Shown: positions 1 to 12,720, counted from the first letter of the stretch. The stretch is DNA of 64,000 nt from Acetothermia bacterium UBA3571 (GCA_002375995.1 DFNI01000011.1:13333-77332); one strand, 5' to 3'. Program-made: numbers and translations. The notes: a model not told the origin generated them from the letters alone.

Positions 1-21
1 ACCGACACTTACCGGCACCGG

Positions 22-354
22 TTGGCTGGGGCCGAAAAGGTCCTTCTTTACTCGAGCCGCCACGGGGCCGTCTTCTGGGACCACGGGGGAACCGAGGTTT
101 CCGAGTTCATAGGGAAGTTCCTCGGTGACCTGGATATCGTGCTCCTGGAGGGGTTCAAGGGGGCTTCCTACCCCAAGATCGAGATCTATTCTGGAGGTGA
201 ACCCCTGGCCGGGGCGATCCCCGTGCTCGCCGTGGTCACGAACCAAAAGGTGATCGTTCCCGATGGAGTGCGTATCCTCCCCCGGGATCCCGAGATCGTG
301 GCCGATTTCATCGAGGCCGAGGTCCCCGAAGCCCCTGGGGAAGGAATGGGTTGA
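22..354 (+). CDS. mobB: Molybdopterin-guanine dinucleotide biosynthesis adapter protein MobB, C-terminal part (the ORF is truncated by the window start)
   Basis: The track ORF contains DIVLLEGFKGASYPKIEI, the conserved core of MobB; the N-terminal P-loop would lie upstream of the window. Confidence 0.55.
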   Translation: MAGAEKVLLYSSRHGAVFWDHGGTEVSEFIGKFLGDLDIVLLEGFKGASYPKIEIYSGGEPLAGAIPVLAVVTNQKVIVPDGVRILPRDPEIVADFIEAEVPEAPGEGMG

Positions 355-359
355 GCGTC

Positions 360-701
360 TCAGGCTCCCCTGTGGAGCACGTGATCATATCCGCAGCGGA
401 AGAGCTCCACCACGTGCTCGTCGTCGAGGGAGTAATAGATGGATTTCCCCTCCCGGCGGGTCTTCACCAGGCCCTGCATCCGGAGGATCCTCAGGTGATG
501 GGACGTGGCGGGTTGCGATATCCCTAAAAGCTGGGCGAGGTCGTGCACGCACAGTTCGCCTTGGGAGAGGAGGTAGAGGATCTTCACCCGGGTGGGATCG
601 GCGAGCACGCGGAAGGTTTCCGCCAGCCGCATGGCGGCCTCGGGATCGGGCATCTTCTTCAAGAGCTTCTCGGCTTCCTTTTCGCTCAACGCGTGATACA
701 T
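360..701 (-). CDS. ArsR/SmtB family metal-sensing repressor, CzrA-like with an alpha5 Zn/Co site
   Basis: Winged-HTH region (ADPTRVKILYLL, CVHDLAQLLGISQPATSHHL); C-terminal DEH-x10-HVLH matches the DxHx10HxxH alpha5 metal site of CzrA/SmtB; the gene is divergent from a P1B ATPase. Confidence 0.85.
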   Translation of the reverse strand: MYHALSEKEAEKLLKKMPDPEAAMRLAETFRVLADPTRVKILYLLSQGELCVHDLAQLLGISQPATSHHLRILRMQGLVKTRREGKSIYYSLDDEHVVELFRCGYDHVLHRGA

Positions 702-773
702 AACCCTTTCACTTTAACCCCTAGGGGGCCTTGAACCAAGGAGCGGGAACAGCTATAAATTAGCAAACAATTA

Positions 774-783
774 AACAGCTGTT
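774..783. promoter_or_regulatory. Perfect 10-bp palindrome AACAGCTGTT in the divergent intergenic region; candidate ArsR/SmtB operator
   Basis: Palindrome read directly from the sequence, 5-15 bp upstream of the ATPase start codons and between the divergent arsR and the ATPase; the operator assignment is inference. Confidence 0.3.
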
Positions 784-788
784 CATAG

Positions 789-2939
789 ATGGTGAGCTTT
801 ATGAATCGCACCAAAAACGCGAATGCAAAGGAAACCCAGGAGTTCCGAGTGGGCACGATCCACTGCCCCTCCTGTGCCTTGCAGCTCCAGCGACGCCTCG
901 AGGCGGTACAAGGGGTGGAAGGTGCAGAAGTAAGCCTTCTCGATGGAGTGGTCCGGGTGGTCTATGACCCCAAACGCATCGGAACCCCGGAGCTCGAAAA
1001 GGCCGTGGTTACCCTCGGGGGACAGATCGTCCACCTGGAGGACCACAACCATGACCACACGGGAGATCGGCTCACCTTGATCTCGGGCGTCTTCCTCCTC
1101 GCCGGGGGCCTCGCCTACCTCGCCGGGAACGTGGTCCTGGGTAGGGTGTGGGATGTGGCCATACCCCTCTCCGGCCTCCTCTTCGGCATCGGGGCCGCCA
1201 CCGGGGGGCTGCCCGTGCTGCGGCGCGCGCTCTCGGAGCTCAAGCGGAGGCTCCTCGGCATCGACCTCCTCGTCTCCATCGCCATCATCGGCGCCCTGGC
1301 CTTGGGGGAATCCTTCGAAGCGGCAGCCCTCGCTTTTCTATTCGGGGTCGCGGAGTGGCTGGAGGAGAAGGCCGCGGCCCGGGCCCGCCGCTCCATCCGG
1401 GATCTACTGGATCGGGCCCCGAAACGTGTGACCGTGTTGCGGGAGGGCCGGGAGATCGAGCTCCCCGTGGAGGCGGTGTCTCCCGGTGAGGTGATCCTCG
1501 TCCGGCCCGGGGAAACTATCGGGCTCGACGGGGTGGTGGTCCGGGGCCGCTCCAGCGTCTCCGAGGCCCCCGTCACCGGGGAGTCCACTCCGGTGACGAA
1601 GGAGGGAGGGGACCCCGTTTACGCCGGTACCTTGAACGAAGACGGGTCGCTGGAGGTGCGGGTAATTCGCTCCGCCGGAGAGAGCACCTTGGCCCGGATC
1701 GCCGCCCTGGTGGAAGAGGCACAACACCGGAAGGCCCCGGTGGAGCGGACCGTGAACCGCTTCGCCCGCTACTATACCCCCGCCGTGGTGGGAGCGGCCG
1801 TCCTCGTGGCCGTCATTCCCACCGCCCTGGGTTTCCCTCTCCGGGACTGGATCCTTCGGGCACTGATGCTCCTCGTCATTGCCTGCCCCTGTGCCCTCGC
1901 CATCTCCACCCCGGTGTCCATGATCTCTGCTTTAGTGGCTTCGGCCAAGCGGGGGATATTGGTAAAAGGCGGCGCGGCGTTGGAGGCCATCGCGAAAGTG
2001 CGGTTCCTGGCCGTGGACAAGACCGGCACCCTCACCACCGGAGAGCTGCGAGCGGAAGTGGTGCCGCTTGACGGAACGGACACGCGGGAGATCCTAAGAG
2101 TTGCCGCGGCCCTGGAGAAAGGAAGCGAACATCCCATCGCCCGGGCTATACGGGCGCTCGCGGAAGGAGAGGATCACCTGCCGGAGGTCACAGACTTTAA
2201 GGCCCTTCCGGGCTTGGGAGTGAGGGGTAGGATCCAAGGGGAAGAGTATGTGGTGGGACGTCCCGAGCTCTTCGGGGACATGCCCCCCGCGGTGCAAAAA
2301 CTCATCTCCTCGGGGAGGAGCGTGGTGCTGGTGGGTAAGGAAAAGGGCCCCATCGGCGCGATCCTCCTCTCCGACGAGATCCGCCCCGAAGCCCGGGAGG
2401 CCATCGCGGCCACAAGGAGGTTGGGGGTGGAACCGGTTCTCCTCACCGGGGACCGGGCCCCGGTGGCCAGGGCGGTGGCCGAGGCGTTAGGAATCAAGGA
2501 GGTCCACGCCGAACTCCTTCCGGAGAAGAAGCTCTCCCTAGTGGAGGACCTCAGGAGGCGCGGTGGAGTAGCGTTCGCGGGAGATGGGATAAACGATGCC
2601 CCCGCCCTTGCAGCTGCGGACGTGGGGATCGCCATGGGCGCCATCGGGACCGACGCCGCCATCGAGGCCGGCGATGTAACGCTGATGCGCGACGACCTCC
2701 GGGATGTCCCCCGGTTGATCTCCCTGGGCCGCCGGACCCTGCGGGTAATCCGGTGGAACATTGGGATCGCCCTGGCGTTGAAGCTCGCCGTGGCCGGGTT
2801 CGCCTTCGCCGGCTTCGCTTCCCTGGCCCTGGCCGTCCTCATAGGCGATGTTGGGGGGACGTTGGTGGTCACCGGGAACGCCATGCGCCTCCAACGGCCC
2901 GTATTTGAACCGAAAAATGAGGAGGTGTCGGACGCATGA
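789..2939 (+). CDS. Heavy-metal translocating P1B-2 type ATPase (Zn2+/Cd2+/Pb2+ exporter, ZntA/CadA-like)
   Basis: N-terminal HMA-like domain with CPSC; TM6 CPC motif (IACPCALAISTP); DKTGTLT phosphorylation site; GDGINDAP; TM7 Lys (ALKLAV) and TM8 DxG (IGDVGGT) diagnostic of the Zn/Cd subgroup. A second ATG at 801 has the better SD (GGTGAG). Confidence 0.9.
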   Translation: MVSFMNRTKNANAKETQEFRVGTIHCPSCALQLQRRLEAVQGVEGAEVSLLDGVVRVVYDPKRIGTPELEKAVVTLGGQIVHLEDHNHDHTGDRLTLISGVFLLAGGLAYLAGNVVLGRVWDVAIPLSGLLFGIGAATGGLPVLRRALSELKRRLLGIDLLVSIAIIGALALGESFEAAALAFLFGVAEWLEEKAAARARRSIRDLLDRAPKRVTVLREGREIELPVEAVSPGEVILVRPGETIGLDGVVVRGRSSVSEAPVTGESTPVTKEGGDPVYAGTLNEDGSLEVRVIRSAGESTLARIAALVEEAQHRKAPVERTVNRFARYYTPAVVGAAVLVAVIPTALGFPLRDWILRALMLLVIACPCALAISTPVSMISALVASAKRGILVKGGAALEAIAKVRFLAVDKTGTLTTGELRAEVVPLDGTDTREILRVAAALEKGSEHPIARAIRALAEGEDHLPEVTDFKALPGLGVRGRIQGEEYVVGRPELFGDMPPAVQKLISSGRSVVLVGKEKGPIGAILLSDEIRPEAREAIAATRRLGVEPVLLTGDRAPVARAVAEALGIKEVHAELLPEKKLSLVEDLRRRGGVAFAGDGINDAPALAAADVGIAMGAIGTDAAIEAGDVTLMRDDLRDVPRLISLGRRTLRVIRWNIGIALALKLAVAGFAFAGFASLALAVLIGDVGGTLVVTGNAMRLQRPVFEPKNEEVSDA

Positions 2940-3994
2940 GAACGTGGTTTCTCGCCGGAAGCACCGTTCTTTTCCTGGCCTTTTTGGCTGCAGCGGGACC
3001 ATCCCTGCAGGTGGAACCCACGGTTTACCGGTTCGGCGAGGTGACGGAGGGGATCCTCGTCCGCGCGGTGTTCGTCCTAACCAATGTGGGCGATGCCCCC
3101 CTGGTTTTCCCCCGTCAACCACACACCTCCTGCGGCTGTACCAGCGCCCCGCTGCCGAAAGGGGAGCTCCTTCCCGGAGAATCGATGGAACTGGTGGTTC
3201 TCTTCGACTCCACCGGCTTCGGGGGGCGGAAGATAGCCAGGAGGGTGGAGCTTTTCTCGAACGACCCCGAGCAACCTAAACGGATTCTGTTACTGGAAGG
3301 ATACGTGCGCAAGCCCCTGCCACACGAAGCCTCGGCTTCCACCCTGTATTACGGTTTTTACCTTTTGGTGGACTTAAGATCTCCCGATGCTTACGCCCGA
3401 GGACATCTGTTGGGAGCCATCAATATCCCTCTGGAGGACCTTGAACTCTGGGCCGATCGTCTTCCCAAGGCCCTCCCCATCTATCTCTACGATGAGACCG
3501 GAGAAGGTGCCGCGGAGGCGGCACGGCTCCTGCGGGAGCGCGGGGTTGTGGTGGCCCGGGCCATTGCTGGCGGGCTCTTGGGATGGCGGGAGGAGCTTGG
3601 AGACGCTTTCTTCACTCACCCCCTTGGGGGCCCGAAAGCACCCCCTTCCGGCAAGGGGGAGGGCAAAAGCCGCGCGGTGAGCCCCCGGCGCGTGGCCAGG
3701 AACTACTACGTGATAGTGGACTTGCGCACGGTCCAAGAGTTCGCCGCCGGACACATCCCCGGCGCGTTGAACCTGACCCCTGAAGAACTCCCCACGTGGC
3801 TCGCCGCGCTTCCCCCCATCGGGGATGCAGGTGCCCTTCACATATGGCTCGTAGACGCTGACGGAACCACGGCTTGCGAGCTGGCCGCCGCGCTGCGGAA
3901 CGAGGGGTACGGGAACATCTATTGCCTCGTGGGCGGAATCGAACAGTGGAAGGCCCGCTACCCCGATCTCCTGTGGAGCGGGCCGGCCAATTGA
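2936..3994 (+). CDS. Secreted DUF1573-domain protein fused to two rhodanese (sulfurtransferase-like) domains
   Basis: Signal peptide; DUF1573-type beta-sandwich with TSCGCTS motif; two rhodanese-like modules (DLRSPDAYARGHLLGAINIP; DLRTVQEFAAGHIPGALNL; catalytic-loop-like CLVGG); the ATGA start overlaps the ATPase stop, which suggests translational coupling. Confidence 0.7.
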   Translation: MRTWFLAGSTVLFLAFLAAAGPSLQVEPTVYRFGEVTEGILVRAVFVLTNVGDAPLVFPRQPHTSCGCTSAPLPKGELLPGESMELVVLFDSTGFGGRKIARRVELFSNDPEQPKRILLLEGYVRKPLPHEASASTLYYGFYLLVDLRSPDAYARGHLLGAINIPLEDLELWADRLPKALPIYLYDETGEGAAEAARLLRERGVVVARAIAGGLLGWREELGDAFFTHPLGGPKAPPSGKGEGKSRAVSPRRVARNYYVIVDLRTVQEFAAGHIPGALNLTPEELPTWLAALPPIGDAGALHIWLVDADGTTACELAAALRNEGYGNIYCLVGGIEQWKARYPDLLWSGPAN

Positions 3995-4027: not shown

Positions 4028-5158
4028 GTGATTAATAAAATAGTACATACCTGGACCGTTTTGGGCGCGCTTCTGGTTGGTTTTCTCCCAGCCCTAGGGG
4101 TGGAACTGGTTTTCTTCTATGATCCCGGATGTCCGCACTGTGCCCGCATCGATGCCTTCCTCGCAGAAATAGGGCCCGATTATCCGGAGCTCCAGGTAGT
4201 TCGCTTCAACATCCGGGAGCCCCAGGCCAGGGAGATATTGGAGAAGCTCCTCGTCGCCTACGGTGTGGAACTTGGCCCAGTGCCGCTGATATTTGTAGGG
4301 GATGTGGCCTTAGTCGGGGACACCTTCTACGGGCTGGAAGAGGAGCCGGTGACCCTCCACGGGCGGGCCGGGGAGATGGCCTTGGAGGAAGCGATTCAGC
4401 GGGCCATCGCGGAAGGGGCCCCCTCTCCCTTAGCGCGGGCGGAGGGGGTCCAGGGCCGCGACTTGGCCGAAAAGCTCACCTTGCCCGCTGTCCTCGTGGC
4501 CGCGGCGGTGGACTCGGTGAACCCTTGTTGTTTCGCGATCCTCATATTCCTTTTCGGCGCTTTGCTCGTCGCAGGGCGGCGGCGCCGGATCCTTCCCATC
4601 GGGCTTTCCTTCCTTTCCGCCATTTACATCTCGTACTTCCTCATGGGGCTTGGGGTCTATTCGGCTATCCAAGCCGCCGGGGTGCAGTACTACTTCATCC
4701 TTTCCGTCTCGATCCTCGCGGTACTCATGGGGGTGTGGTCCATCAAGGACTACTTCGCCCACGGGAAGTGGTTCAGCCTCGAGGTTCCCCAGCGCTGGCG
4801 CCCCCTCTTGAAGCGGCTCACCGCGTCGGTGGTTTCTGTCCCTGGGGCATTTGCTATCGGGATCCTGGACTCCCTCTTTCTCCTTCCCTGTTCGTCGGGT
4901 CCCTATATCGCCATATTGGCGCTTATTTCCCGGACGACCACCAGGGCCCAGGGGATTCTTTACCTCCTCCTCTACAACCTGGTCTTCGTCCTCCCCCTTC
5001 TCATCCTCACCCTGGGGGTACACTTCGGTTTTACCACCACCGCCCGGGCGGAGCGGTGGCGTGCCCAACGGGTGCAGAAGCTACATCTCGTTTCGGGAGC
5101 GGTGATGGTTCTCCTGGGAATTGGAATGATCGTGGCCCTCCAGCTCGGTTACGTTTGA
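4028..5158 (+). CDS. Thioredoxin-like domain (CPHC) fused to a CcdA/DsbD-type transmembrane thiol-disulfide transporter
   Basis: N-terminal periplasmic Trx-like domain with FYDPGCPHCARI; C-terminal multi-TM domain with NPCCFAIL and LLPCSSGPY, typical of CcdA/DsbD electron-transfer cysteines. Confidence 0.75.
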   Translation: MINKIVHTWTVLGALLVGFLPALGVELVFFYDPGCPHCARIDAFLAEIGPDYPELQVVRFNIREPQAREILEKLLVAYGVELGPVPLIFVGDVALVGDTFYGLEEEPVTLHGRAGEMALEEAIQRAIAEGAPSPLARAEGVQGRDLAEKLTLPAVLVAAAVDSVNPCCFAILIFLFGALLVAGRRRRILPIGLSFLSAIYISYFLMGLGVYSAIQAAGVQYYFILSVSILAVLMGVWSIKDYFAHGKWFSLEVPQRWRPLLKRLTASVVSVPGAFAIGILDSLFLLPCSSGPYIAILALISRTTTRAQGILYLLLYNLVFVLPLLILTLGVHFGFTTTARAERWRAQRVQKLHLVSGAVMVLLGIGMIVALQLGYV

Positions 5159-5232: not shown

Positions 5233-5409
5233 TCAGCCGCAGCAGCCGTGGCTTTCCTCGGGAAGGTAGCGTTCGGGGTCCTTCTCAAAAGCTTCTTTAC
5301 AGCTCGGCCCGCAGAAGTGGTAGGTTTTCCCCTTGTACTCCACTGCCTCCGTGGCCGTGTTGGGATCCACCTCCATACCACACACGGGATCCCGGACCTT
5401 GTCCGCCAT
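5233..5409 (-). CDS. Small YHS/TRASH-domain metal-binding protein (58 aa), below the track's 60-aa cutoff
   Basis: Manual translation: MADKVRDPVCGMEVDPNTATEAVEYKGKTYHFCGPSCKEAFEKDPERYLPEESHGCCG; YHS consensus DPVCGM...YxFCxxxC; RBS GGAGGTGAGGAGAG upstream. Confidence 0.6.
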   Translation of the reverse strand: MADKVRDPVCGMEVDPNTATEAVEYKGKTYHFCGPSCKEAFEKDPERYLPEESHGCCG

Positions 5410-6114: not shown

Positions 6115-6361
6115 GGGTCTCCTTTCGCTCCGAACGGAGTGATATCAAAACACATTCGCATTTTATGCTCGGCGGGAGGGGTAACAACCCTTCCTAGGAA
6201 GTTCCGTGGCCTCTGAATGCAAACTACATCAATAATTTTGGAGCATGCACAGATAAAAATGTCTCCATACAATCTCCACGATCTCTTCATCCTCTCTCCA
6301 CAGCCGTCCAGGAGAATTCCCCTGACCCAATGCGCTACAGCGGAAATCTGGAGGTGATGGA

Positions 6362-7000
6362 ATGGCTCATAGAGGTCGGGCCGTCGGTGTTCTCTTTTTT
6401 ACTGCGTTTTCCGTGTTCGTGGCACTCTTCCCCGTCGCGGCACAGAGCCAGTTACTGGACGAGCTCCGTGCCGAGCTGATACCCGGGGAAGGCGCGAAAA
6501 CTTCCTACGGACTCCCACTGTCCCTCGATAACATCCAGACCTTTGCCGATTGGTACTACTCCATCCAACTGTCTCCGGAGGAGAAGGAGATCTTCCGGGA
6601 AGCCCTTTCGGCCATTCCCGCCCCTTGCTGCGACGACAACCCGGTACTCAAATGCTGTTGCCAGAAAACGAACCGCATCTGTAACCTCACCCGCTCGGCC
6701 ATGGGGCTCGGAGCGTGGCTCATCCACGAAAAGGGCTTTACTGCCGAGGAGACCAAAGCCGCGGTGGAGGAGTGGCTCCGTTTCCTGAGGCCCCAGTACT
6801 ACCTCGCCTTGGCCCTGGAGGAGAGGGGCCTCGATCCCCGGGAATACGGCCTCAAGGAACACGAGGCTTACGAGTCCTGCGATCAAAAGCTCTGCGAGGT
6901 CCCACTGGACGCGGGCGGGTGCGGTGGAATGGGCCTTAAAGTGCTTTTGAAGGAAAAAGAGGAGGTTCCCGCTTGCTGCCGCGCCGAAGGGGGCCAATAA
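6362..7000 (+). CDS. Secreted cysteine-rich protein of unknown family, paralog 1 (PCCDD / CCC / ICNL / CxxxLCE / GGCGGMG motifs)
   Basis: Signal peptide (VFVALFPVAAQSQ); nine Cys conserved with the downstream paralog; no recognisable domain. Confidence 0.6.
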   Translation: MAHRGRAVGVLFFTAFSVFVALFPVAAQSQLLDELRAELIPGEGAKTSYGLPLSLDNIQTFADWYYSIQLSPEEKEIFREALSAIPAPCCDDNPVLKCCCQKTNRICNLTRSAMGLGAWLIHEKGFTAEETKAAVEEWLRFLRPQYYLALALEERGLDPREYGLKEHEAYESCDQKLCEVPLDAGGCGGMGLKVLLKEKEEVPACCRAEGGQ

Positions 7001-7017
7001 TGGAGCGGTGATACCCT

Positions 7018-7653
7018 ATGCCCAAGGGCGTGGAAAAGAGGAAGTCAAGGAGAAAGGGAATGATCAAATTGATCGTGTTGGCGGGACTAGGAGTGTTGGC
7101 GGTGGGGCTCGTGTTCCTCCTCATGCCCCATGGGTCGAACTCCGCGGACGCCGAGGAGATTTCCCTAGCAGAGCTCGAAGCGGAGGTGATTCCCCCGGTG
7201 GGGAAGGAGACTGCATACGGGATCCCCCTTTCCTGGAACAACGCCCAGACCTTCGCCGACTGGTACTACGAGGTCCGGCTCTCCCCAGAAGAGTCGGCCC
7301 TACTTCAGCGAGCCCTGAAGGAAATTCCTACCCCCTGTTGCGACGATACCCGGATCACGCGGTGCTGCTGTGAGCGCTCAGGGTACATCTGCAACCTCGT
7401 GAGGAGCGCCCGGGGGCTCGCAGCGTGGCTCATCCGGGAGAAGGGCTTTGGGGAAGGAGAGGTACGGGAGGCGGTGCTCGAGTGGGTGCGGTTCGCCCAC
7501 CGCAAATACTTCCTCGCCCTCGCGCTAAAGGATCGGGGGGTGAACCCGACGAAATACGGTCTCACCACCAAAGGGGCTTGTTATCGGCAGCTGTGCGAGC
7601 GCCCCATGCGGGAGGGAGGCTGCGGCGGGATGGGTGAGCGAGTGGAGATTTAA
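7018..7653 (+). CDS. Secreted or membrane-anchored cysteine-rich protein of unknown family, paralog 2
   Basis: The same nine-Cys pattern (PCCDDTRITRCCCERSGYICNL, CYRQLCE, GGCGGMG) and a shared TFADWYY motif; likely start at MIKLIV (7060); a rho-independent terminator follows. Confidence 0.6.
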   Translation: MPKGVEKRKSRRKGMIKLIVLAGLGVLAVGLVFLLMPHGSNSADAEEISLAELEAEVIPPVGKETAYGIPLSWNNAQTFADWYYEVRLSPEESALLQRALKEIPTPCCDDTRITRCCCERSGYICNLVRSARGLAAWLIREKGFGEGEVREAVLEWVRFAHRKYFLALALKDRGVNPTKYGLTTKGACYRQLCERPMREGGCGGMGERVEI

Positions 7654-7684
7654 TCGGAACCCTCAGAACCCCCTTCCGATATAG

Positions 7685-7716
7685 GCGCCGGCCTTCACCG
7701 CCGGCGCTTTTTCTTC
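7685..7716 (+). terminator. Rho-independent terminator (GGCGCCGGC-loop-GCCGGCGC followed by TTTTTCTT)
   Basis: GC-rich hairpin and T-tract seen directly after the second Cys-rich gene. Confidence 0.6.
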
Positions 7717-7800
7717 ACGGAAACTCCACACGAGCTTCCTTGAACTTTCATCGAGATGGTTTAAAGTGAAAATACGTTTAAAAATCGAAAGGAGAGCACA

Positions 7801-8187
7801 GTGGCCAACTACAGTTACCGGAAGACCGTGAGCCTCCCCTTCGGGGAGGTGGTGGAAAAAGTCAAAGATTCCCTGGCCAAGGAGGGCTTCGGGATCCAAG
7901 CCGAGATCGACCTCGCCCGGGCCATGCGGGAGAAACTCGGGGTGAAGTTCGAGGACTACGTGATCCTCGCCGCCTGCAACCCTCAGCTCGCCCACAGGGC
8001 CCATGCCGCCGAGACGGACGTGGGACTGCTTCTTCCGTGCCACGTCATCGTTTACCGTGACGGAGACACGGTCCGCATCGCCGTGGCCCGGCCCACCGTG
8101 GTGCTGGGGGTCGCAGGGAACCCGGAGCTCATGCGGGTGGCCCAGGAGGCCGAGATCCAGCTCATCCAGGCCCTGGACGCAGCTTGA
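7801..8187 (+). CDS. DUF302 domain protein
   Basis: ILAACNPQLA and LLPCHVIVY motifs are characteristic of DUF302; GTG start with RBS GAAAGGAGAG; an AT-rich putative promoter (TTGAAC-16-TAAAGT) lies upstream. Confidence 0.8.
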   Translation: MANYSYRKTVSLPFGEVVEKVKDSLAKEGFGIQAEIDLARAMREKLGVKFEDYVILAACNPQLAHRAHAAETDVGLLLPCHVIVYRDGDTVRIAVARPTVVLGVAGNPELMRVAQEAEIQLIQALDAA

Positions 8188-8374: not shown

Positions 8375-9007
8375 ATGGCCGCCGAGACCGCCCGTAGACG
8401 CTATGACCCTATCGCCCCGGTTTACGATCTCTTGCAGTGCCCGATGGGACGGGCCTCCGCCTCTTGGCGGAAGCGGCTCTGGGCTGAGGCAAAAGGCCCT
8501 CGCCTCCTCGAGGCCGGGGTGGGAACGGGACGCAATTTTCCGTTTTACCCCAACTCGGCCAAGATCACCGCGGCGGACATAAGTCCCCGGATGCTCGCCC
8601 GGGCGAGGGCCCGCGCCTCCCGCATGGACCTTGAGGTTGAGCTCCGGGAGATGGACATTCAGTCCCTGGGTTACCCCGATAACAGCTTCGATTCCGCCGT
8701 CTCTAGCTTCGTGTTCTGTTCGGTGCCCGACCCCGTGCGGGGGCTTAAGGAGCTCGCCCGGGTGGTGAAGCCCGGAGGAAGGATAGTCCTTCTTGAGCAC
8801 GTACGTCCCCGGGGGCGGGTGCTCGGGCGGCTCTTCGACTTCCTTACCCCCTTGGTGGTGCGGCTTTTCGGATTCCGCCTGAACCGGCGGACCGTGGAGA
8901 ACGTCCGCCGCGCCGGGCTTAAGCTGGAGAGGGTTGATTACCTCGATCGGGTGGGGATCGTGAAGCTGATCGTGGCCCGCCCGCACAAGGAGGTGGACGA
9001 TGGCTGA
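8375..9007 (+). CDS. Class I SAM-dependent methyltransferase (UbiE/Methyltransf_11-like)
   Basis: Motif I LEAGVGTGRNF, acidic loop ITAADISPRM, and motif post-I/II region VKPGGRIVLLEH. Confidence 0.8.
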   Translation: MAAETARRRYDPIAPVYDLLQCPMGRASASWRKRLWAEAKGPRLLEAGVGTGRNFPFYPNSAKITAADISPRMLARARARASRMDLEVELREMDIQSLGYPDNSFDSAVSSFVFCSVPDPVRGLKELARVVKPGGRIVLLEHVRPRGRVLGRLFDFLTPLVVRLFGFRLNRRTVENVRRAGLKLERVDYLDRVGIVKLIVARPHKEVDDG

Positions 9008-9374
9008 GGTGAAGGAAAGGCCGGTGGGGGCGTTCGTACTGTCGCTCCTTGCCGGGATCTGGATGGTGGGCGCAGGACTCATGATATACCGTTGGAGCGG
9101 CACCACGTCTTGGATGTGGGGCCACGGGATGATGGGCGGATACCTCGGGTGGGGTCGGTTGCCCTGGTTGGGCTTGATTTTCGGGATCGTGGTCCTCGTC
9201 GGGGCAATCGCTATTTACCTTAGGCCCGACAAAACCTCAGGTTGGGGTATCGCCATCCTGGTGGCCTCCGCCGTGAACGTCCTCTTCGGCATGGGAGGGC
9301 TGCTCGCAGGACTTCTGGGGATCGCGGGTGGAGCGTGGGCCATCGCCTGGAGGCCGGGAGAAGGTGGTGATTGA
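9000..9374 (+). CDS. Hypothetical integral membrane protein (3-4 TM, Trp/Gly-rich)
   Basis: Hydrophobic segments; overlaps the start of the downstream Cu ATPase, which suggests co-transcription. Confidence 0.5.
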
Positions 9375-11611
9375 TCATGGCGGTGAAGGATCCGGTATGC
9401 GGGATGGAGCTCGAGGCGGCCTCGGCCGCCGAGACCCGGGAGTTCCGGGGAAAGACCTACTACTTCTGCTCCTCCTCCTGCGCAGATAAGTTCGATAAAG
9501 AGCCGGAAAAGTACGCCGGTGCCCCTGGTGGAGGCCATGAACACGGGGAGCACGCTGGGCACAGTGGACACGAACATCACGAGTACAAGGCCCATGAGGG
9601 CCACGCCGGCCATGCCAAACACGAAGGCATGGGCCACGGGGAACACGGGCACCACGACCATCACGCCCACCACGCCCAGATGGTGGCTGACTTCCGCCGC
9701 CGGTTCTGGGTCTCCCTAGGCCTCACTGTCCCCATCCTGCTTTTGTCTCCCCTGATCCAAAAATTCTTGGGCCTCCCCAAGGCTTTGGCCTTCCCGGGAG
9801 CTCCCTACCTCCAGCTCGTCCTCGCCTCCGCGGTCTACTTCTATGGCGGCTGGCCCTTCCTCAAGGGCATGTGGGATGAGCTCAGAAAAAAGCAGCCGGG
9901 GATGATGACCCTGATCGCCCTGGCCATCTCGGTGGCCTACGTGTACTCCGCCGCGGTGGTCCTAGGCCTTGCGGGCCAGGTCTTCTTCTGGGAGCTGGCC
10001 ACATTGATCGACGTGATGCTCCTTGGGCACTGGATCGAGATGCGGTCGGTGTTGGGCGCGTCCAAGGCGCTGGAGGAGCTCGCACGCCTCATGCCTTCTA
10101 CCGCCCACCTCCTTAAGGATGGAACGGTGGAGGACGTTCCCATCGAGGTCCTGAAACCCGGCGATCGGGTGCTGGTGAAACCGGGAGAAAAGATCCCCGT
10201 GGACGGCATCGTGATCGAGGGGCGCACCACGGTGAACGAGTCCATGCTCACCGGGGAGTCCCGGCCAGTGGAAAAAGGCGAGGGCGATGAGGTGATCGGC
10301 GGTGCGGTGAACGGGGAGTCGGCCATCACCGTGGAGGTCAAGCGCACCGGGGACGAGACGTATCTCGCGCAAGTGATCGATCTCGTGAGGAAGGCCCAGG
10401 AAGCCCGCTCCAAGACCCAGGACCTCGCCAACCGGGCGGCCCTGTGGCTCACTATCATCGCCCTCGGCGGAGGTGTGGCCACACTCCTCGGGTGGCTGGG
10501 GGCTGGGAAGGATTTCAACTTCGCCCTCACCCGGATGGTCACGGTAATGGTGATTGCCTGCCCGCACGCGCTGGGGCTTGCGATCCCGTTGGTGGTCTCG
10601 GTGTCCACTGCCATCGCCGCCCGGCGTGGGTTCCTCATCCGAGATCGCACCGCCTTCGAGCGGGCGCGCGGGCTTCAGGCAGTGGTGTTCGACAAAACCG
10701 GCACCCTCACCCTGGGCCAGTTCGGGGTCACCGACGTGGTGGCCTTCTCCGAGCTCCCCGAGGAAGAAGTGCTGCGGCTCGCAGCGGCGGTGGAGTCACG
10801 CTCCGAGCACCCCATAGCAGCGGGGATCGTGGCCGCCGCCAAAGAACGGAAGATCGAGATCCCCGAACCCCAGGACGTGAAGGCCATCCCCGGCCGGGGT
10901 GTCGAGGGAAAGCTGGACGGAGAGCCGATCATGGTGGTGAGCCCGAGCTACCTCGCCGAGCAGGGACACGATCCCGACGACCCCCGGGTGGCAGAACTCG
11001 CCTCCCAGGGGAAGACGGTGGTCTACCTCTTGGTGGACGGGAAACCCATAGGGGCCATCGCCCTCGCGGACATGATCCGGCCCGAGTCCCGGGAGGCGGT
11101 GGAGAAGCTAAAGGGGATGGGCATCAAGGTCATGATGCTCACCGGAGACGCCGAAGAGGTGGCCAAGTGGGTGGCCGGCGAGTTGGGCCTCGACCACTAC
11201 TTCGCCCAGGTCCTCCCCCACGAGAAGGCCGAGGTGATCAAGAAGGTGAAGGCTCAAGGGCTTACCGTGGCCATGGTGGGGGACGGGGTGAACGACGCGC
11301 CGGCCCTGGTGGAGGCCGATGTGGGCATTGCCATCGGAGCAGGGACCGATGTGGCCATCGAGTCGGCGGACATCGTGCTCGTGCGCAACGATCCCCGGGA
11401 CATCGCGGCGGTTATCAGCCTCGCCCGGGCCACCTACGGGAAGATGGTCCAGAACCTGGGTTGGGCCACGGGCTACAACTCCTTCGCCATCCCCATGGCC
11501 GCCGGAGCTCTGTACCCGGTGGGGGTGCTGCTTTCGCCGGCGTTGGGGGCGGCGCTGATGGCCCTTTCCACGGTGATCGTGGCCATCAACGCCCGCCTGC
11601 TCAAGGGGTGA
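9371..11611 (+). CDS. copB: Copper-translocating P1B-3 type ATPase (CopB-like) with an N-terminal YHS domain and His-rich stretch
   Basis: N-terminal DPVCGMELE...[12 protein letters not shown] (YHS); His-rich region ([46 protein letters not shown]); TM6 CPH motif ([12 protein letters not shown]); DKTGTLT; GDGVNDAP; TM8 MALST. Confidence 0.9.
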
Positions 11612-12058: not shown

Positions 12059-12472
12059 ATGGAGTATCTGACGGTGGGACAATTGGCGGAGCGGGCAGGG
12101 GTGAAGAGATCTGCCCTGCGTTACTACGAGCGGCGAGGCCTTCTCCTCCCAGCACGGCGAAGCCCATCCGGTTACCGCCTGTACCTGCCCGACGCTGTGT
12201 CCACCGTGGTGTTCATAAAGAGGGCCCAGGGTCTCGGCTTCTCCCTGGGCGAGATCGCAGAGCTCCTCGCATTGCGCCGTGCCCCAGCTCTCCCGCGGGA
12301 TCGGGTGCGCATGCTGGCTGCGGAAAAGCTCCAAGAAGTAAGGCGAAGGATCGCGGCCCTGCGGGAGCTTGAAGCGGCTTTGGAAGGACTCCTCGAGGCC
12401 TGTGAGAGGTCCGGGGATCCCCGCAGTTGTCCCATTCTCTCGGCATTGGAAGTAATAAGGAGATGCGATTGA
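12059..12472 (+). CDS. MerR family metal-responsive transcriptional regulator, CueR-like
   Basis: N-terminal HTH (LTVGQLAERAGVKRSALRYYERRGLL), a coiled-coil dimerisation helix, and a C-terminal CERSGDPRSCP (C-x8-C-P) metal-binding loop resembling CueR. Confidence 0.85.
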   Translation: MEYLTVGQLAERAGVKRSALRYYERRGLLLPARRSPSGYRLYLPDAVSTVVFIKRAQGLGFSLGEIAELLALRRAPALPRDRVRMLAAEKLQEVRRRIAALRELEAALEGLLEACERSGDPRSCPILSALEVIRRCD

Positions 12473-12720
12473 TCGAGATCTTCAGCGCGGGTTGCCCGGT
12501 CTGTGAGGAAATTGTCAAGCGGATCAGCGAGATCGGCTGCGACGCCCGTGAGATTCGTGTCCTTGACATGCGCGATCCCCAGGTGGCCCAGCGAGCGAAT
12601 GAGTTGGGGATCCGGGCGGTCCCGGCGGTAGTGATCGACGGGAAGCTCGCCGACTGTTGTGCCGACGCTGGACCGGATCTAGCCACCCTCAGAAGCCTGG
12701 TCCCGGGCCGCGAGAAATAG
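12463..12720 (+). CDS. Small thioredoxin-fold protein (Thioredoxin_3/glutaredoxin-like, CPVC active site)
   Basis: IEIFSAGCPVCEE active-site motif; about 85 aa; overlaps the MerR stop; the start is ATG 12463 or TTG 12469 (the RBS AAGGAG lies 6 nt before the TTG). Confidence 0.7.
   Translation: MRLIEIFSAGCPVCEEIVKRISEIGCDAREIRVLDMRDPQVAQRANELGIRAVPAVVIDGKLADCCADAGPDLATLRSLVPGREK

Follow-up and report, generated by a model that had tools for sequence, protein, structure and literature searches.

The gene at positions 2936..3994 (+) of a 64,000-nucleotide stretch of DNA from Acetothermia bacterium UBA3571 (GCA_002375995.1 DFNI01000011.1:13333-77332; the whole stretch is referred to below as the window) encodes a 352-residue protein with a predicted signal peptide, a DUF1573 domain carrying a Cys-Gly-Cys (CGC) motif, and two pseudo-rhodanese domains. 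We designate this DUF1573(CGC)-rhodanese protein DRR. Its gene lies between those of a heavy-metal P-type ATPase and a membrane protein, Trx-CcdA, which combines a thioredoxin (Trx)-like domain with a CcdA/DsbD-type membrane core. From alignments, gene order and domain fusions we propose, with moderate confidence, that DRR is an exported dithiol protein which would be kept reduced by Trx-CcdA and would either handle thiophilic metal(loid)s or repair exofacial thiols. A broader and distinctly more tentative proposal is that the DUF1573 CGC domain represents an unrecognised class of thiol module outside the cytoplasm, be it a redox carrier or a chaperone for metal(loid)s, and serves as an exported acceptor of CcdA-type electron transporters.

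The DRR gene and the domain anatomy of its product

The open reading frame (ORF) at 2936..3994 is genuine. Its ATG (2936-2938) and the TGA of the ATPase gene (2937-2939) together form a 4-nt start/stop overlap, and a Shine-Dalgarno-like AGGAGG, read from the sequence, is found at 2920..2925 (+), 10 nt 5′ of the ATG and still inside the ATPase gene, at its 3′ end. Orthologues at 68-70% identity have a 17-nt gap in place of the ATGA; the overlap as such is not conserved, but the tight linkage persists. On the other side, 33 nt separate DRR from Trx-CcdA. A promoter and terminator scan gave no site above shuffled expectation and no terminator-like excess within this putative operon, and the arrangement suggests that ATPase, DRR and Trx-CcdA are probably transcribed as one unit in the window.

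The N-terminal segment MRTWFLAGSTVLFLAFLAAAG (2936..2998, +) reads as a predicted signal peptide or membrane anchor from which a lipobox Cys is absent. Its basic, then hydrophobic character is kept across the family alignment, and the AlphaFold2 (AF2) model of DRR places a helix at residues 2-17. The remainder of the protein is accounted for by one match to PF07610 (DUF1573; residues 25-117, 58.3 bits against a cutoff of 26.1) and by PF00581 (Rhodanese; 110 bits), which matches in two stretches, the best of them in domain 2 covering residues 257-340. The AF2 model, computed from a 30-sequence alignment, resolved three domains with confidence (predicted local distance difference test score, pLDDT, 90.5; predicted template modelling score, pTM, 0.83). 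In these respects our analysis agrees with an earlier reading of the same DNA made from the sequence alone (the sequence-only reading), which had described the overlap of the DRR start with the ATPase stop, the signal peptide, a DUF1573 domain with TSCGCTS and two rhodanese modules, and had proposed structure prediction as a check.

Predicted loss of catalysis in both rhodanese-fold domains

The rhodanese alpha/beta fold is present in DRR, and Foldseek matched it to PDB entries 6mxv, 3tp9 and 1yt8. Both domains were delimited from PF00581 and PDB alignments. In domain 1 (3323..3610, +), YLYDETGEG is the loop that pairs with VYCRTGGRS in the 3tp9 rhodanese domain, and Asp186 (3491..3493, +; loop YDETGEG) falls on the catalytic Cys position. 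In domain 2 (3677..3970, +), the counterpart of the loop WLVDADGTT in GlpE of E. coli is VMCYHGNSS, and Asp307 (3854..3856, +; loop VDADGT) corresponds to Cys65. Both aspartates are invariant in a 30-member family alignment. We also counted residues in 89 family sequences taken from genome contigs; here Asp186 was retained in 78/86 relatives and Asp307 in 46/50.

The sequence-only reading had pointed to the Cys of CLVGG as catalytic-loop-like and had envisaged a periplasmic sulfurtransferase producing persulfide or sulfide. Neither idea survived alignment. Cys330 (3923..3925, +), the residue in question, is not part of the active-site loop; it is located in the beta strand preceding the GG..W motif, at a position where GlpE has a Ser. 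It was found in only 25 of 48 relatives, and in the 30-member alignment both C330 and C314 are swapped for A, G, S and other residues. With family-wide Asp at both catalytic positions, the alignments gave the very outcome, loss of the catalytic Cys from both modules, that the earlier reading had itself named as speaking against a sulfurtransferase.

Active rhodaneses have a cationic, anion-binding cradle at the active-site loop; the corresponding loops of DRR are acidic (YDETG and VDADG). The closest PDB sequences are inactive rhodanese domains, namely 1yt8 (YDD-GEG, VDDDG) and Alr3790, and Asp or Gly in place of Cys is a known signature of such domains (PMC6272796). Both DRR rhodanese domains are predicted to be catalytically dead and, because the catalytic Cys is lost from both, DRR should not be a conventional sulfurtransferase. 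Scaffolding or recognition would be the likeliest role of the two domains, and their acidic loops could conceivably bind cations.

Two groups of distant relatives depart from this pattern. A DUF1573(CGC)-rhodanese protein from an uncultured bacterium (L078, ~9901..10530, -) has the canonical active-site loop YCLVGGRS, and its gene is found near those for ACR3, ArsR and a P-type ATPase. The presence of this loop beside a CGC domain means that active forms of the architecture exist, though not in the window's clade. The most distant single-rhodanese relatives (L090, L092 and L094), from metagenome-assembled genomes (MAGs) assigned to Aminicenantales and 'Eubacteriales', have Ser at the rhodanese catalytic position and have lost the first Cys of the CGC motif (FASC/FAAC). 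Trx-CcdA is still present 3′ of the DRR relatives in L092 and L094; the downstream sequence of L090 is too short to judge.

The CGC motif is the conserved feature of the DUF1573 domain

The DUF1573 domain of DRR (2999..3319, +) adopts a PapD-like/ASH immunoglobulin (Ig) beta-sandwich fold in common with PDB 2qsv, and when modelled alone reached a pLDDT of 96.5. Cys66-Gly67-Cys68 (3131..3139, +), in the context TSCGCTS, provides the sole near-invariant cysteines of the family. N50, C66 and C68 are invariant in the 30-member alignment, and in the sequences from genome contigs C68 was present in 87/87 relatives and C66 in 84/87.

A homologue search of the word-indexed kind, for which only the DUF1573 domain served as query, returned no matches. 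Exhaustive phmmer was used instead and identified homologues in 9121 cluster representatives (E <= 1e-3). Giant Ig-repeat proteins among these DUF1573-like matches are without the cysteines; small DUF1573 proteins of 230-380 residues contain one or two domains with CGC in each. In an alignment of 58 such small proteins, the only invariant columns were one Asn and two Cys (N53, C68, C70), and the motif is therefore a hallmark of the family and not peculiar to the DRR gene. Fusion to rhodanese domains was seen in five of the 58, which we take to be the Bipolaricaulota family, and fusion to thioredoxin in one.

We looked for a solved structure with a DUF1573 domain of the CGC type and found none, the closest, 2qsv, being without the motif at the aligned position. 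The OS_HP2 (seleno)protein profile NF041425 scored DRR at 57.3 bits against a cutoff of 100, which marks a related domain and not a member. CxC is a redox or metal-binding motif, and selenocysteine is found in sites of both kinds. Selenoprotein forms of DUF1573 have UGC at the motif (PMC9312934, PMC13188914), which points to a reactive, and not a structural, site.

Trx-CcdA is a conserved neighbour and an occasional fusion partner of DRR

The gene 3′ of DRR (4028..5158, +), which the sequence-only reading had overlooked, encodes a signal or anchor sequence, a thioredoxin-like domain with a CPHC motif (nt 4130-4141) and a CcdA/DsbD-type membrane core. The core was recognised by PF02683 (DsbD_TM; 33.7 bits vs 27.1), and the thioredoxin-like domain gave a weak match to Pfam Glutaredoxin (18.9 vs a cutoff of 22.9). 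Exactly four cysteines are invariant in 36 aligned Trx-CcdA sequences: C35 and C38, which form the CxxC that follows the signal/anchor, and C167 and C288, one in each half of the membrane core. Gene order, described below, indicates that Trx-CcdA is the conserved partner of DRR, being its most frequent and most conserved neighbour. Other genes that adjoin members of the DRR family are small ones for Thioredoxin_3 and additional ones for anchored Trx-like proteins.

Two fusions join the same parts. In L093, one uninterrupted ORF (20..1573, +) encodes DUF1573(CGC)-Rhod(YDQDG)-Trx(CPHC)-CcdA, on a contig of 2.2 kb whose fusion is possibly an assembly artefact; a second anchored Trx-like gene (CPSC) is present 3′ of the fusion ORF. 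P0038, a protein of 558 residues, consists of a membrane anchor, a TlpA-like Trx domain (CPEC), a DUF1573 domain with CPC and not CGC, and two Asp-type rhodanese domains. These independent fusions put the CxC domain and the thioredoxin-fold redox domains in one pathway and on one side of the membrane.

Distribution and gene neighbourhoods of the DRR family

The DRR family comprises ~55 clusters in the protein database, and those that are named belong nearly all to Candidatus Bipolaricaulota/Acetothermia; the window itself is matched by a Bipolaricaulota MAG contig (GCA_002376485.1). Many of the loci numbered L015-L094 are titled as 'uncultured Thermotogae/Thermotogaceae', Caldisericota or Neomarinimicrobiota MAGs, titles that we suspect reflect taxonomic mislabelling or mis-binning.

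We surveyed 80 loci from species-representative genomes, comparing neighbour proteins by tblastn with the window neighbours and proteins of ars-type loci as queries, and checking gene orders with called-gene tables and Pfam matches. A full-length Trx-CcdA gene was found downstream of DRR, on the same strand and within 4.5 kb, in 38 of the 69 loci with at least 1.5 kb of downstream sequence, and in 21 of these 38 it was within 400 nt. None of the surveyed loci had a full-length Trx-CcdA upstream. A P1B ATPase gene lay directly upstream in 7/73 loci with at least 1 kb of upstream sequence, and these belong to two separate clades. Genes of ars type (ACR3, ArsP, low-molecular-weight ArsC, DGC) were present in 16/80 loci, a housekeeping context (Metallophos plus an unnamed convergent gene) in 11/80, and no informative neighbour, often on short contigs, in 18/80. 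The ars operon of L095 combines several of these genes in the order ArsR - ArsP - DGC - Thioredoxin_3 - DRR - ACR3 - Trx-like - Trx-Trx-CcdA.

In a neighbour-joining tree, the window falls with L015, L017, L019 and L024 in a small clade with the order ATPase>DRR>Trx-CcdA, and the sister of this clade has DRR>Trx-CcdA only. The second ATPase-linked group is a separate single-rhodanese clade (L062, L066, L067) with an upstream P1B-2 ATPase that is 38-45% identical and the same kind of regulator. Gene order is kept across clades at only 31-45% identity. The sequence-only reading had also looked to a conserved association with metal transporters as a test of its idea, and this association holds in part: the ATPase (7/73) and ars (16/80) loci uphold it, but one clade is in a housekeeping context and the ATPase is not the commonest neighbour. 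At 6348..8036 (-) of L062, convergent with ATPase-DRR, are genes for a CsoR-like repressor and for a pyridine-nucleotide disulfide oxidoreductase of MerA-like type, which ends in CCVE and is apparently divided between two ORFs; they suggest that the island also contains a mercury/copper module.

The upstream ATPase and the ArsR-type regulators

The ATPase gene (789..2939, +) was assigned to the P1B-2 (Zn/Cd/Pb-type) class from profiles and motifs. Its product passes the cutoffs of both TIGR01525 (573 bits) and TIGR01512 (496 bits vs 313.5), and contains E1-E2_ATPase and Hydrolase domains and an N-terminal HMA domain with CPSC. Its transmembrane motifs, read from the translation, are CPC (LVIACPCALAIS), N-x7-K (NIGIALALK) and D-x-G (GDVGG). 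This confirms the upstream gene as the Zn/Cd ATPase of the sequence-only reading.

Divergent from it is a gene for an ArsR/SmtB-family regulator of 113 residues (360..701, -; PF01022 HTH_5, E 7e-22) with ELCVHDL and the C-terminal sequence DDEHVVELFRCGYDHVLH, which we read as a putative Zn/Cd sensor of the SmtB/CzrA alpha5 type. Orthologues of this regulator, at 64-93% identity, occupy the same position in every ATPase-linked locus. The ars-type loci have an ArsR regulator with GERCGCE, and in loci with the order ArsR>DRR>Trx-CcdA and no transporter the regulator has LCVCE, read as a classical As(III) site. The DRR/Trx-CcdA pair is thus found repeatedly next to genes for predicted metal(loid) sensors, which would control it. 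Persulfide sensing of the BigR/SqrR kind was considered for these ArsR neighbours and rejected, as their motifs are of the SmtB/CzrA alpha5 or As(III) CxC type.

A model for DRR function and its alternatives

We infer the direction in which electrons travel, a redox activity of the CGC pair and any contact it makes with metal as follows. The working part of DRR would be the CGC dithiol on its Ig-like DUF1573 domain. Cytoplasmic thioredoxin would donate electrons to the membrane cysteines of CcdA (C167/C288), which would pass them to the exported Trx domain (CPHC) and from there to the CGC of DRR, so that the dithiol would be held reduced outside the membrane. DRR and Trx-CcdA would be accessories in operons for resistance to thiophilic metal(loid)s. 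In the window the pair is probably joined in one operon with a Zn/Cd/Pb pump under an SmtB/CzrA-like repressor, and its paralogues are located in ars operons with regulators of the As(III) type. The reduced CGC might capture or pass on ions expelled by the pump, as a chaperone or sink comparable to CueP for copper, or it might reduce or exchange exofacial thiols that the ions have blocked or oxidised, in a manner comparable to ScsC/DsbC.

The principal competing explanation retains the electron pathway and dispenses with the metal. The CGC domain would stand at the end of a DsbD/ScsB-like system, split and permuted, as its reductase or isomerase; it would be a functional analogue of DsbD-alpha with other exported proteins as its targets, and metals would serve only as the inducing stress and not be bound. 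It draws on the same Trx-CcdA linkage and fusions as our own proposal; in DsbD/ScsB, moreover, the Cys pair of an Ig-fold domain relays electrons from a Trx-like domain to clients, and Scs is copper-induced (PMC10907172). Family members in housekeeping contexts would also suit a general envelope function. However, no client protein is identifiable, and the position right behind metal(loid) pumps recurs in two clades that have different ATPases and at times lack CcdA, which suggests a more direct tie to the exported ion. We consider this explanation rather unlikely. A purely structural role would make DRR a structural or surface Ig protein whose CxC is buried or structural and whose rhodanese domains have no function, and whose gene came to lie next to ATPase and CcdA genes by island assembly. 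Close structural relatives of DUF1573 are indeed mostly structural or adaptor Ig domains, the giant DUF1573-like repeat proteins do without the cysteines, and about a quarter of the loci (18/80) offer no informative neighbour. We nonetheless find such a role improbable in view of the gene order conserved across divergent clades, two independent fusions to thioredoxin-fold domains, associated regulators that are consistently metal(loid) sensors, and the selenocysteine found at the motif of other DUF1573 proteins (PMC9312934).

Very unlikely, in our judgement, is an active periplasmic rhodanese, whether it were to generate persulfide or sulfide that precipitates Cd/Zn or to donate sulfur to the neighbouring Cys-rich proteins. 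The rhodanese fold clearly occurs twice in DRR, the gene is probably co-transcribed with a pump for thiophilic metals, and the L078 relative has a genuine active-site loop next to its CGC domain. But Asp186 and Asp307 occupy the catalytic positions family-wide, Cys330 is neither in the loop nor conserved, and the loops are acidic where a cationic cradle would be expected, Asp/Gly being a mark of inactive domains (PMC6272796). What stands of the sequence-only reading is the architecture and, in part, a real link to thiophilic-metal export; the sulfurtransferase chemistry that it proposed falls with the catalytic Cys.

Several observations weigh against the proposal that DRR is a reduced, metal-associated dithiol protein. 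L062-type loci have the ATPase and no CcdA nearby. The 11-locus clade, together with P0035 and P0044, has housekeeping neighbours, and genes for CcdA, an ATPase or ars functions are absent from the vicinity; the core function is therefore not tied to metal stress. CPHC is also the motif of DsbA, and an oxidising flow of electrons is therefore possible; nor can the UGC forms separate redox activity from metal binding, because selenocysteine occurs in both. The survey relied on tblastn queries derived from the window and on MAG contigs, many of them short and some mis-binned. P0064, a DUF1573 protein of the generic two-domain type that comes from another phylum, likewise lies in a housekeeping context. 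A link to CcdA for DUF1573 proteins in general was rejected on the basis of P0064 and the rarity of thioredoxin fusions (1/58), and we therefore claim it only for the Bipolaricaulota family.

Comparison with known thiol-redox and metal-resistance systems

Envelope reductases of the Scs/DsbD type have ties with resistance to copper and with CueP, a chaperone (PMC10907172). The system described here resembles DsbD/ScsB (ScsB-ScsC-CueP of Salmonella; DsbD alpha/beta/gamma) in having a DsbD_TM core with two conserved membrane cysteines, a putative exported thioredoxin-like domain with CxxC and an exported Ig-fold domain with a Cys pair, and in its tie, by induction or by gene linkage, to thiophilic-metal stress and to a P1B ATPase/chaperone axis (PMC10907172). 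It differs in that the Ig domain of DRR is a DUF1573 (PapD-like/ASH) domain with CxC, which is not homologous to DsbD-alpha/ScsB-alpha (CX3C according to the review). Furthermore, DRR is normally a separate polypeptide with one or two predicted dead rhodanese domains, the Trx domain of its neighbour is N-terminal to a short CcdA-type core, and the hosts are anaerobic Bipolaricaulota. As the Ig domain is not of the DsbD-alpha type, the likeness is one of analogy. We found no homology of DRR to CueP.

Genes for CcdA, for thioredoxin and for redox-active disulfide protein 2 were noted in ars operons by Castillo and Saier in 2010 (PMC2963123). They doubted transmembrane electron flow, ArsC being cytoplasmic, and named no exported acceptor (PMC2963123). 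In Bipolaricaulota we find the same set, with CcdA, Trx-like and Thioredoxin_3 (= redox-active disulfide protein 2) genes near ArsR, ACR3, ArsP and ArsC. Unlike the set described before, it includes an exported CxC protein beside CcdA, sometimes fused, and occurs with a Zn/Cd ATPase as well. DRR is thus a candidate for the exported acceptor of these ars-operon genes (PMC2963123), at least in Bipolaricaulota. If this is true, it would explain the presence of CcdA/thioredoxin genes in arsenic and heavy-metal operons despite the cytoplasmic location of ArsC.

With the inactive rhodaneses, among them the N-terminal domains of two-domain rhodaneses, P. aeruginosa PA2603 (1yt8) and Nostoc Alr3790 (3hix), DRR shares a D-x-x-G loop in place of C-x-x-G-x-R. 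Two-domain rhodaneses pair an inactive with an active domain, whereas in DRR both domains are predicted to be inactive, exported and joined to a CGC Ig domain. To DUF1573 (PF07610) it conforms in the N..C-x-C signature, the profile match above threshold and the 2qsv fold. Typical members of that family differ in being stand-alone proteins with one or two domains and no thiol-redox neighbours. We did not find any publication that deals with DUF1573-rhodanese proteins, or with a DRR/Trx-CcdA module in Bipolaricaulota.

Public records name the DRR family "rhodanese-related sulfurtransferase", an annotation corrected here, as the family should not be a conventional enzyme of this kind. Beyond anatomy and gene linkage, we infer a thiol-redox relay of the envelope that is coupled to metal resistance and built on an uncharacterised domain. 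DUF1573 gains a testable functional context and, should the broader proposal be true, this very widespread domain would gain a first function. The findings also suggest that exofacial thiols are protected or put to use by uncultured, anaerobic Bipolaricaulota as they export Zn/Cd or As(III), which would parallel the Scs/DsbD systems that proteobacteria have in connection with copper.

Other genes of the metal-resistance island

Two tandem Cys-rich paralogues (6362..7000, +, and 7018..7653, +; 212 and 211 residues) are found downstream in the window. They are ~49% identical, have an N-terminal hydrophobic segment and PCCDD...CCC motifs, and gave no match in Pfam or NCBIfam. Homologues adjoin P1B ATPase and YHS genes in L015 and L039. 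The rest of the island encodes a small YHS protein (5233..5409, -), a DUF302 protein (7801..8187, +), an S-adenosylmethionine (SAM) methyltransferase (8375..9007, +), a DUF6114-like membrane protein (9000..9374, +) and a second P1B ATPase (9371..11611, +), which has an N-terminal YHS domain and is 37% identical to the first. Further downstream, 12463..12648 (+) gave a weak tblastn match, 33% over 66 residues, to the small Thioredoxin_3 of ars-type loci.

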